Sequence record: OR424388.1
Length of the DNA: 64,000 nt
Direction: 5' to 3' (one strand)
Source of the DNA: Escherichia phage HEMP5
Shown: one piece after another, positions 22,896-24,052 of the stretch
Numbering within the stretch: the first letter of the stretch is position 1
How the letters are laid out: each line of letters opens with the position of its first letter
The notes under the pieces: generated by a model
The model's input: the letters and a program-made list of their open reading frames with translations, nothing else
What the model was told of the DNA's origin: nothing
Databases searched by the model: none
Program-made: the position numbers and the translations under genes

Positions 22896-22919
22896 TTTAT
22901 TCTCCTCAGTAGTTGATAG

Positions 22920-22953
22920 GGTAATAGTATCACTACCCCATCTAAAAGTAAAT
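22920..22953 (-). promoter_or_regulatory. early-type promoter-like element (ATTTAC -35 variant, GTGATACTATTAC -10 region)
   Basis: -10 region identical to that at 23216..23234. Confidence 0.35.
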
Positions 22954-23187
22954 TTATTTTTTACGAAAAATTGATTTATTTTCTGCTGCCCATTTTTCAA
23001 TAACTGCAGCAGGACCAGTAACAACAATTTTATCACCGTAAACTTCTGCGGCGAGTTGACCGAAATTATCTAATGCATCACGAAGAACTCCATGAGGCAT
23101 TTCACCCATTTTATCTTTCTTGCCGGTGTAAATAAACTCAACTTTTGCATCAGAAGATTCAGCGATAAATTCTTTGAAAGTTTTCAT
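22954..23187 (-). CDS. internal-protein-like small protein with CTS MKTFKEFIAE (~77 aa)
   Basis: track ORF 22954..23199 trimmed to CTS Met; own promoter and leader. Confidence 0.6.
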   Translation of the reverse strand: MKTFKEFIAESSDAKVEFIYTGKKDKMGEMPHGVLRDALDNFGQLAAEVYGDKIVVTGPAAVIEKWAAENKSIFRKK

Positions 23188-23221
23188 TTTAGTTTCCATT
23201 CGATTGTTTTGTTTTGATAGG

Positions 23222-23254
23222 GTAATAGTATCACAACTAAAACCCTATGTAAAC
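23222..23254 (-). promoter_or_regulatory. T4 early-type promoter with conserved leader
   Basis: minus-strand GTTTACATAGGGTTTTAGTTGTGATACTATTACC; 32-nt leader ATGTAAACAACTTTGTGAAATTATTTTAAATC repeated at 23576..23607. Confidence 0.4.
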
Positions 23255-23266
23255 AACTTTGTGAAA

Positions 23267-23524
23267 TTATTTTAAATCTTCTAATCGTTTCTTCATCTTA
23301 GAACCATTTTTAGCAATTTCTCCTGCATCGGAGCATAATGCTAAAAGTGCTTTAACTTTAGTTTGGTCTCCTTTAAAAGATGAAGGATCGACTGCAGCAG
23401 CAAGTTCTTTAATACGAGAGAAAAGACGCTCAGCTTCAGCTAAAGCCATTCCAAGCTTTACTTCCATACCGTGAGAAGATTCAGTGATAGTAGTTTTTGT
23501 AGCAAACTCTTTGAAAGTTTTCAT
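23267..23524 (-). CDS. internal protein (ipI-locus position), 85 aa with CTS MKTFKEF
   Basis: CTS motif; body homologous to the IP at 15222..15503 (shared ...KLG.AL.EAE.L..RI.ELA...KALL..C...EIAKNGS.MK.RLE...). Confidence 0.65.
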   Translation of the reverse strand: MKTFKEFATKTTITESSHGMEVKLGMALAEAERLFSRIKELAAAVDPSSFKGDQTKVKALLALCSDAGEIAKNGSKMKKRLEDLK

Positions 23525-23549
23525 TTTATTTTCCTAATTAATTTTGATG

Positions 23550-23583
23550 AGATAATAGTATCACTATCTCATCAGCATGTAAA
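23550..23583 (-). promoter_or_regulatory. T4 early-type promoter with conserved leader
   Basis: minus-strand GTTTACATGCTGATGAGATAGTGATACTATTATC. Confidence 0.4.
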
Positions 23584-23596
23584 CAACTTTGTGAAA

Positions 23597-24052
23597 TTAT
23601 TTTAAATCATCTGCCCAATCGAGTTTAAGAGGCTCTTTGTATTCACGATCTAATACGACCGGAATTTGTACATCACCGCTAAATGATAAGGGCCCAACAT
23701 TATAAGACAATGTTATATGCGGTGTGTAATCATCAAAATCATGTGTAGCACCTAGTGCCCGCGCATACATGTGTCGACAGCGCAGATATTCAGAATCTAG
23801 CACAAGTACAAGAGTCGATCCATCTTGTGTTTTCCATACTTCTAAATGTCCAGAAGAAGCTACTTCAAAACTTCCGCTTGATGGAACATACGGAACATTT
23901 ACTCTTGAATAACATATGGTCGAATGAATTTTTTCTCTAGGAACTGGATTAGGAACACGTAAAGAGCGCTGGAGTTCTTCCAGCGCATCAAGTGTTAATT
24001 CTGAAAACTTAGCTGCTACATAAAGACCCGTTGAAAAGTCTTTAAATTCCAT
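23597..24052 (-). CDS. 57B: gp57B (151 aa); in T4 this is Acb1, the anti-CBASS cyclic-nucleotide phosphodiesterase
   Basis: size and position upstream of 57A; N-terminus [18 protein letters not shown] consistent with T4 57B as remembered. Confidence 0.75.

Follow-up and report, generated by a model that had tools for sequence, protein, structure and literature searches.

Shared promoter and capsid-targeting flanks around unrelated internal-protein genes at the ipI locus of Escherichia phage HEMP5

In a 64,000-nt stretch of Escherichia phage HEMP5 (sequence record OR424388.1; the window), two genes for internal proteins (IPs) follow repeated promoter-containing cassettes and begin with the same capsid-targeting sequence (CTS). 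Proteins of this kind are known from phage T4. For T4 IPIII, it is experimentally established that the first 10 residues target the protein and that gp21 processes it (PMC9026906), and the GmrSD type IV restriction enzymes inhibited by T4 Ip1 (IPI), Ip2 and Ip3 differ from one protein to the next (PMC12373910; PMC3012670). According to the Discussion of PMC2839356, Repoila et al. 1994 (EMBO J 13:4181), a study also cited in PMC3012670, PMC12373910 and PMC9026906, proposed that promoter/stem-loop flanks at IP loci drive the shuffling of IP genes. To the extent that this study is represented in the later papers, its loci resemble the one described here in the 57B-ipI-trna.4 position, the names Ip5 and Ip6, a conserved N-terminal leader and an element combining a T4-early promoter with a stem-loop; they differ in nothing essential, and the window is one more Ip5/Ip6 genome. 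Our analysis favors the same view: as a whole, the locus is best explained by modules with shared promoter and CTS flanks and exchangeable injected cargo, an explanation to which we give a probability of about 0.88.

Promoter/stem-loop elements (PeSLs) have been described in RB49/phi1 (Arbiol 2010, PMC2839356) and in PST/T4 and nt-1/KVP40 (Comeau 2014, PMC4122927), and those at IP loci were proposed to drive shuffling (PMC2839356 Discussion, PMC4122927). The cassettes of the window share with PeSLs the succession of upstream stop, AT-rich tract, -35 and -10 boxes, stem-loop over the promoter, Shine-Dalgarno sequence and ATG, as well as the location in hyperplastic regions beside variable open reading frames (ORFs), and their promoters fit the PST/T4 PeSL consensus TTTACW-N17-TAYWAT (PMC4122927). 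Natural deletion or hybrid cassettes, found in the T4 ipI-trna.4 interval and in three of the loci compared below (L035, L027 and L020), likewise resemble PeSL-type recombination between neighbors. However, RB49/phi1 PeSLs have near-consensus TTGACA/TATAAT boxes and poly-G/poly-C stems, whereas the window has GTTTAC as its -35 box and AT-rich stems (GATGAGATA, ATAGGGT); its promoters are of the T4-early type and not near-perfect sigma-70 promoters, the -10 box lies between the two arms of the stem, and a U-tract terminator was not detected. Arbiol et al. regard the T-even IP elements as analogues, not homologues, of the RB49 PeSLs (PMC2839356), and we found no sequence homology between the window cassettes and the RB49/phi1 PeSLs. 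Integron cassettes and phage 'morons' (PMC2839356) are also small self-contained expression modules that occupy a preferred site and hold variable cargo between conserved boundaries. Unlike them, the window has no integrase or attC-type site, exchange would occur by homologous recombination at short repeats, and the IP cargo additionally carries a protein-level address tag, the CTS. Internal proteins are not mentioned in Petrov 2010.

The shuffling principle is therefore already known, having been proposed in 1994 and taken further by the PeSL papers of 2010 and 2014, and so is the Ip5/Ip6 arrangement, which is present in about 200 deposited genomes, the names Ip5 and Ip6 already standing in deposited annotations. 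Compared with the 1994 study as later papers describe it, our additions are only the base-level junctions from modern genomes and a count of stem covariation.

The window is a Tequatrovirus (T4-like) genome, and the region is the hypervariable 'ipI' internal-protein locus of T-even phages, with an Ip5-like and an Ip6-like gene between 57B (acb1) and trna.4. Every gene in 22700-24100 is on the minus strand, and the ORFs together with the annotation of relatives give the order gene 1, 57A, 57B, Ip5-like, Ip6-like, trna.4-like, trna.3. Relatives are annotated 57B / Ip5 / Ip6 / trna.4 at this locus, with 57B named gp57B; T4 has one gene, ipI, at the same position. The features of the locus, in minus-strand order, are as follows (aa, amino acids; CBASS, cyclic-oligonucleotide-based anti-phage signaling system).

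23597..24052, minus strand: gene 57B, Acb1 anti-CBASS nuclease family (Pfam PF23474, Acb1 full-length, E 2.6e-60), 98.9% nucleotide identity to T4 57B
23577..23608, minus strand: 32-mer copy 1, exact match, reading GATTTAAAATAA (the Asp-Leu-Lys-stop of 57B), A/T-rich tract and -35 box GTTTAC at 23584-23579
23545..23574, minus strand: core of cassette P1, upstream of the Ip5-like gene; inverted repeat with arms 23545-23554 and 23565-23574 around the extended -10 box TGATACTAT
23267..23524, minus strand: Ip5-like gene, an ORF of 85 aa; phrog_3499 'internal head protein', E 1e-49; annotated Ip5 in ACG-C40 and ASO78A
23247..23278, minus strand: 32-mer copy 2, exact match, with the Asp-Leu-Lys-stop of the Ip5-like gene, upstream tract and -35 box GTTTAC at 23254-23249
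23216..23248, minus strand: core of cassette P2; 19-mer 23216-23234, -10 box TACTAT 23230-23225, arms 23217-23223 and 23242-23248
22954..23187, minus strand: Ip6-like gene, an ORF of 77 aa from the ATG at 23187; phrog_8111 'internal virion protein', E 2e-49; annotated Ip6 in ACG-C40
22915..22942, minus strand: core of cassette P3, preceding trna.4 and not an IP gene; 19-mer 22915-22933, -10 box TACTAT 22929-22924, -35 box ATTTAC
22710..22895, minus strand: trna.4-like gene, 61 aa, predicted membrane protein, identified as an ORF, from relatives' annotation and as phrog_1692; 97.3% identical to T4 trna.4

There are two exact copies of the 32-mer ATGTAAACAACTTTGTGAAATTATTTTAAATC in the 64 kb, and 0 of 100 dinucleotide-preserving shuffles contained a match; in IMG/VR the exact 32-mer was found at the 57B-IP locus only. 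The 19-mer GATAGGGTAATAGTATCAC, which holds the extended -10 box and one arm of the inverted repeat, is exact at 22915-22933 and 23216-23234, and a third copy with three mismatches lies at 23546-23564. The two 32-mer copies bracket the ip5 module and the two exact 19-mers bracket the ip6 module; all in all, three copies of a 71-nt repeat family are present. The abstract of the 1994 report is said to give a flanking sequence of ~70 bp, which would match this family.

Both repeats had been noticed in an earlier sequence-only reading, which placed the 32-mer at 23247-23278 and the -10 region repeat at 23216-23234 correctly and the other copy of each 1 nt off (23576..23607 instead of 23577-23608, and a start at 22916 instead of 22915). 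It had also taken the 32-mer for a leader, and this has to be revised. The 32-mer lies upstream of the -10 box, since its coding (minus) strand reads GAT TTA AAA TAA (Asp-Leu-Lys-stop), then TTTCACAAAGTT, then the -35 box GTTTAC; it is a promoter-upstream element that runs from the end of the gene before it, across an A/T-rich tract, to a -35 box. The Asp-Leu-Lys-stop belongs to 57B in copy 1, which thus includes the last three codons and the stop of this conserved upstream anchor of the locus, and to the Ip5-like gene in copy 2. Each cassette spans the sequence from the upstream stop (the TAA of 57B or of the Ip5-like gene within the 32-mer) to AGGAAA or GGAAAC and the downstream ATG, and its promoter consists of GTTTAC, an 18-nt spacer and TACTAT with TG upstream. 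In the form used for consensus scanning, TTTACA-17-TACTAT, the sites are 23583-23555 and 23253-23225, with the upstream tract TTTAAAATAATTT. Each copy of the repeats was further supposed to precede a CTS gene; the 85-aa and 77-aa ORFs do start with MKTFKEF, but the copy at 22915-22933 precedes the trna.4-like gene, the conserved downstream anchor, whose protein starts with MKRCELIRN and has no CTS. Assembly duplication was rejected as the source of the repeats on the ground that 202 independent phage records have this arrangement too. Segment 22300-24100 matched 654 phage records, the closest being Yersinia phage PYps32T (99.6%), and 202 of them span at least 80% of this query.

The two IP genes resemble each other only at their beginning. 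The CTS codons of ip5 and ip6 are identical at 20 of 21 nt, and the 31-nt stretch of Shine-Dalgarno sequence, ATG and tag codons is 94% identical, while the proteins share nothing beyond the CTS, in agreement with the differing bodies reported by the sequence-only reading. The Ip5-like protein has the CTS MKTFKEFATK and the CTS/propeptide MKTFKEFATKTTITE, for which gp21 cleavage is predicted after residue 15 (ITE), leaving a mature protein of 70 aa with an isoelectric point of 9.2. In the Ip6-like protein (CTS MKTFKEFIAE), the (I/L)xE motif is IAE at residue 10, and the predicted mature protein has 67 aa. T4 IPI, IPII and IPIII (Mullaney & Black 1996), as they are presented in reviews (PMC9026906, PMC3012670), have the same MKT(F/Y)xEF..E tag, the same (I/L)xE motif and the same distribution over two loci; their mature products are also small and mildly basic, and the long propeptide of T4 IPI (MKTFKEFTSTTTPVSTITE) resembles that of the Ip5-like protein. 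In contrast, the mature Ip5-like and Ip6-like bodies have no detectable similarity to IPI or, by sequence, to any solved structure, and a sequence search of the PDB with these two proteins gave no significant match.

ORFs starting with the MKT(Y/F)xEF CTS number four in the 64 kb (Ip5-like, Ip6-like, IP93 and IPIII-like), and all of them are in the two IP loci, 57B-trna.4 and e-denV, as are all IP genes of the window, in an order that agrees with T4 and ACG-C40. The gp21 motif (I/L)xE was found, as a sequence motif, at the propeptide end of all four proteins. A Pfam search of the IP proteins matched no family; the IP families of PHROGs cover the CTS proteins (phrog_3499, phrog_8111 and phrog_5341; E 1e-46 to 1e-117).

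The exchange of cargo can be followed in a comparison of 37 loci, namely 36 loci around 57B from IMG/VR and that of T4. Downstream of 57B these contain 47 tag-bearing ORFs, which fall into ~15 cargo families after removal of the tag; the Ip6-like protein belongs to family F1, with 13 members. No profile-profile similarity was detected by hhalign among the eight multi-member families (probability at most 2.3%), a weak negative given the shallow alignments. Identity to T4 is 98.9% in 57B, 93.6% over cassette and tag and 97.3% in trna.4, and the ip5 and ip6 bodies have no match; homology with T4 and with L034 ends at ~23490-23504, inside the propeptide, and restarts in the cassette upstream of trna.4, at 22933-22952. 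Cassette types and cargo families combine independently of each other. An intact P1-type cassette precedes the Ip5 family (window and L004), T4 IPI and a 102-aa family (L034), a chimera with the 3' half of P1 precedes a 90-aa family (L027), and the Ip6 family is found downstream of the P2 cassette, of another promoter, or coupled to 57B by an ATGA overlap.

Several of these loci look like natural recombinants. In L035, 57B is linked via the 32-mer straight to the P2 spacer and Ip6, just what crossing over between the two 32-mers would be expected to yield. The T4 ipI-trna.4 cassette consists of the 5' half of P2 and the 3' half of P3, joined within the shared 19-mer, and L027 and L020 have chimeric or partly duplicated cassettes. 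Since the junctions in T4, L035, L027 and L020 lie inside the repeats, the repeats are the places at which natural recombinants are joined. This comparison shows that modules are gained, lost and replaced between T-even genomes at short conserved patches, namely the 32-mer, the 19-mer of the -10 core and the 31-nt Shine-Dalgarno/ATG/CTS stretch. These results support the proposal of the sequence-only reading that IP genes are shuffled by homologous recombination at conserved promoter/CTS flanks; the underlying observation is real apart from small errors, and the shuffling can be traced to base-level junctions.

The cassettes are also distinguished by an inverted repeat, which is a selected structure. 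The P1 arms, TGATGAGATA and TATCTCATCA, are 10 nt long and 100% complementary, and they enclose the -10 hexamer (23560-23555), which is preceded by TG; the RNA hairpin has an energy of -15.4 kcal/mol (z -6.5), and the 81-nt fold a z of -3.46. The P2 hairpin has -13.2 to -13.7 kcal/mol (fold z -3.12), and that of P3, with arms 22915-22923 and 22934-22942 and one G-T pair, -16.1 kcal/mol (fold z -4.06). Together, the three ipI-locus hairpins lie between -13.7 and -16.1 kcal/mol, compared to -8.4 or weaker at 16 other promoter-like sites of the window, and the fold z of the three cassettes is -3.1 to -4.1. For covariation, 42 distinct cassettes whose spacer is 18 nt long were aligned on their -10 boxes. 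In-register pairing was observed in 64% of cells, compared to 30-56% when the partner column was slid, 9 of the 13 stem pairs had changed on both sides, and the covariation observed was reached by 0 of 500 shuffles. One pair shows a clear compensatory series: the window has A-T, T4 has G-C and L034 has G-T.

Once transcribed into read-through RNA, the conserved hairpin around the -10 box most likely insulates modules from each other or attenuates transcription between them; of all steps of the mechanism outlined below, this function is the least certain. The sense-strand RNA is more stable than the antisense in 27 of the 37 stable cassettes (p ~0.02, with sequences that are non-independent), and we read this as weakly favoring a function in read-through transcripts. 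We consider it doubtful that the inverted repeat is a mechanistic module boundary, whether as an insulator in read-through RNA or as a recombination-targeting hairpin or cruciform of the DNA. If the RNA form were true, mRNA behavior would be confined to transcripts started at the promoter, which are without the 5' arm; if the DNA form were true, the IP locus would be an integron-like cassette array without an integrase.

Possible sources of read-through are present. T4 late-promoter motifs TATAAATA were found on the minus strand at 16002-16022, just upstream of e, and at 24650-24657, inside gene 1 and upstream of 57A/57B. The late promoter before e would feed the translationally coupled IP93 gene, and both late promoters could serve late IP expression by read-through. 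With late promoters upstream, late read-through expression of ip5 and ip6 would therefore need leaky hairpins.

From these data a mechanism can be outlined. Each module consists, in order, of the preceding stop codon, an A/T-rich tract, an early promoter (-35 box GTTTAC, 18-nt spacer, extended -10 box TGATACTAT) with the inverted repeat, a short 5' untranslated region with a Shine-Dalgarno sequence, the ATG, the CTS MKT(F/Y)xEF..E and an unrelated protein body. By analogy with established T4 biology, host sigma-70 RNA polymerase would start at the individual early promoter in front of each IP gene, the CTS would take the precursor into the scaffolding core of the prohead, and the prohead protease gp21 would cut off the propeptide at (I/L)xE. 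The mature protein would then enter the host together with the DNA, as expected for relatives of the T4 IPs known to inhibit GmrSD-type restriction enzymes. Exchanges of modules would be made by the phage's own homologous recombination during mixed infection, and in read-through RNA the inverted repeat may insulate one module from the next.

Such a cassette architecture explains how injected counter-defence effectors are swapped rapidly among T-even phages, and it makes the locus a good source of new anti-restriction proteins and a starting point for engineering phages with CTS-delivered cargo.

Three other explanations of the repeats were weighed. Their conservation could be due to function alone (strong early promoter, packaging tag), with recombination incidental and cargo diversity arising by other routes, for example illegitimate recombination or divergence. 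The upstream/-35 and -10 consensus is indeed largely common to other early promoters of the window, CTS residues 4, 7, 8 and 10 are functionally constrained (PMC9026906), and a seemingly private denV deletion in this genome (see below) lies at a 9-nt microhomology and not at a cassette. Functional constraint does not account, however, for an identity of 32/32 that runs into the 3' coding ends of two unrelated genes (DLK-stop), for CTS codon choice that is identical at 20 of 21 nt, for the junctions inside the repeats of T4, L035, L027 and L020, or for flanks 97-99% identical to T4 around bodies without a match, and we regard this explanation as unlikely. Alternatively, ip5 and ip6 could go back to a single ancestral IP gene, duplicated in tandem with its promoter, the two bodies then diverging fast, which would fit the tandem layout and the repeated flanks 330 nt apart. 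Yet the two bodies have nothing in common beyond the CTS and no profile similarity (F1 vs F5, probability 2.3%), they occur apart and in other combinations in other genomes, and the true paralogue of the Ip5-like gene is at the other IP locus, so that such an origin is scarcely credible.

The promoter/stem-loops could also be structure-specific recombination sites in the style of integron attC sites or PeSL mini-circles, at which a dedicated or structure-directed activity, in place of general homologous recombination, would cut modules out as small circles and insert them again. The hairpin is kept by compensatory changes and is unusual among the window promoters, several junctions fall in the -10 core, which forms the hairpin loop and 3' arm, and PeSL mini-circles have been demonstrated in RB49 and phi1 (PMC2839356). 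Against this, the 32-mer and the CTS, where other junctions lie, are not part of the hairpin, the presence of G-U pairs and the bias to the sense strand point to a structure of RNA and not of DNA, and short homology is reportedly enough for recombination in T4 (PMC2839356 Discussion). On balance we find such excision quite improbable, less probable than purely functional conservation. For the promoter/stem-loop sites we know of no recombinase.

Exchange of modules at shared flanks remains the preferred explanation, and several observations weigh against it or limit it. The similarity between the repeats is partly the T4 early-promoter consensus, as TTTCACAAA..GTTTAC and TACTAT also occur in other early promoters of the window. 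A promoter is present within 100 nt of 18 of the 47 CTS genes at the locus, many others being coupled to 57B by an ATGA overlap, and the promoter cassette is therefore not required for an IP module. The core of 19-mer, -10 box and hairpin also precedes unrelated, non-IP genes elsewhere in T-even genomes, which led us to reject IP-specificity of the cassette: promoter plus stem-loop is a general element class, and the tag is the sole IP-specific part. As to an attenuator role, the sense-strand bias is modest only (27 vs 10, non-independent sequences), and a search for a stem followed by a T-run, as in intrinsic terminators, found none in 22650-23700; no hairpin has a U-tract, and canonical intrinsic termination is thus not supported at these positions. 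One deposited annotation labels the same hairpins as terminators (WebGeSTer/TransTermHP).

The other two CTS genes of the window form the second IP locus.

15222..15503, minus strand: IP93 gene, a paralogue of the Ip5-like gene, 93 aa; phrog_3499; 48% identity, E 1e-24
14357..14935, minus strand: IPIII-like gene, 192 aa; phrog_5341, E 1e-117; CTS MKTYKEFIAE

The homology of the 85-aa protein to the IP beside lysozyme e, first seen in the sequence-only reading, is borne out by the alignment to IP93, as is the lack of relationship of the 77-aa protein, which aligns to IP93 in the CTS only. Homology between the Ip5-like protein and IP93 stops exactly at the start of the 32-mer, where RLE is followed by DLK-stop in the former and by KYISGASEK-stop in the latter, a detail in keeping with exchange at the repeats. 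The ATG of IP93 overlaps the stop codon of lysozyme e, and for this reason IP93 has no promoter cassette of its own. IP93 has the gp21 motifs LSE at residue 10 and LNE at residue 15, and the IPIII-like protein has IAE at residue 10. An early promoter, GTTTAC-N18-TATAAT at 14995-14966, precedes the IPIII-like gene, with no stable hairpin (fold z -0.36). Downstream of the IPIII-like stop codon, a GC-rich hairpin (GGCCTATACTTAGGCC) is located within 14210-14356; the ~130 nt between this hairpin and the next gene (13640-14209) have neither an ORF nor an Rfam match. Across the whole window, tRNAs were the sole matches of an Rfam scan.

Compared with phage Lutter, which has the order e, IP, denV, small IP, IPIII-like, the window has a 517-nt deletion with its junction at ~15065-15073, within 15030-15110, at a 9-nt microhomology (TTTAGGACT / TTTACGGACT). 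The denV remnant (15061-15162, minus strand) consists of the first 33 codons only, fused to the tail of the small IP gene. In all 10 of the full-coverage matches listed from the phage collection for the junction 81-mer, it is split into two pieces ~600 nt apart, a count outside which stand 186 other matching records, and from these alignments the deletion looks private to this genome. If true, the genome would be without the endonuclease V of ultraviolet repair. The early promoter upstream of the denV remnant (15165-15225, minus strand) has a different hairpin, of -19.1 kcal/mol (z -3.4), in which the promoter spacer CUUCCUCCAAG pairs with the Shine-Dalgarno region CUUGGAGGAA; the ribosome-binding site would be sequestered in read-through transcripts and free in promoter-started ones.

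At the ipI locus, the Shine-Dalgarno sequences of both IP genes are without GGAG (AGGAAA at 23525-23545 and GGAAAC at 23188-23215, minus strand), and that of the trna.4-like gene, GAGGAG (22896-22914, minus strand), includes it. GGAG is the motif cut by the T4 RegB endoribonuclease. One may speculate that IP mRNAs, being without GGAG, last later into infection. Furthermore, 57B/Acb1 lies directly upstream of the IP cassettes, so that an anti-CBASS enzyme and injected anti-restriction proteins would form one small counter-defence cluster.

A further case of promoter variation was observed away from the IP loci. The gene starting with MKTVTINKGIYFGK has a promoter without an inverted repeat in the window (4369-4398, minus strand), whereas in another T-even genome (L049, ~9516) it has a promoter of the hairpin type with the 19-mer. 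Promoter type is therefore polymorphic at orthologous positions.

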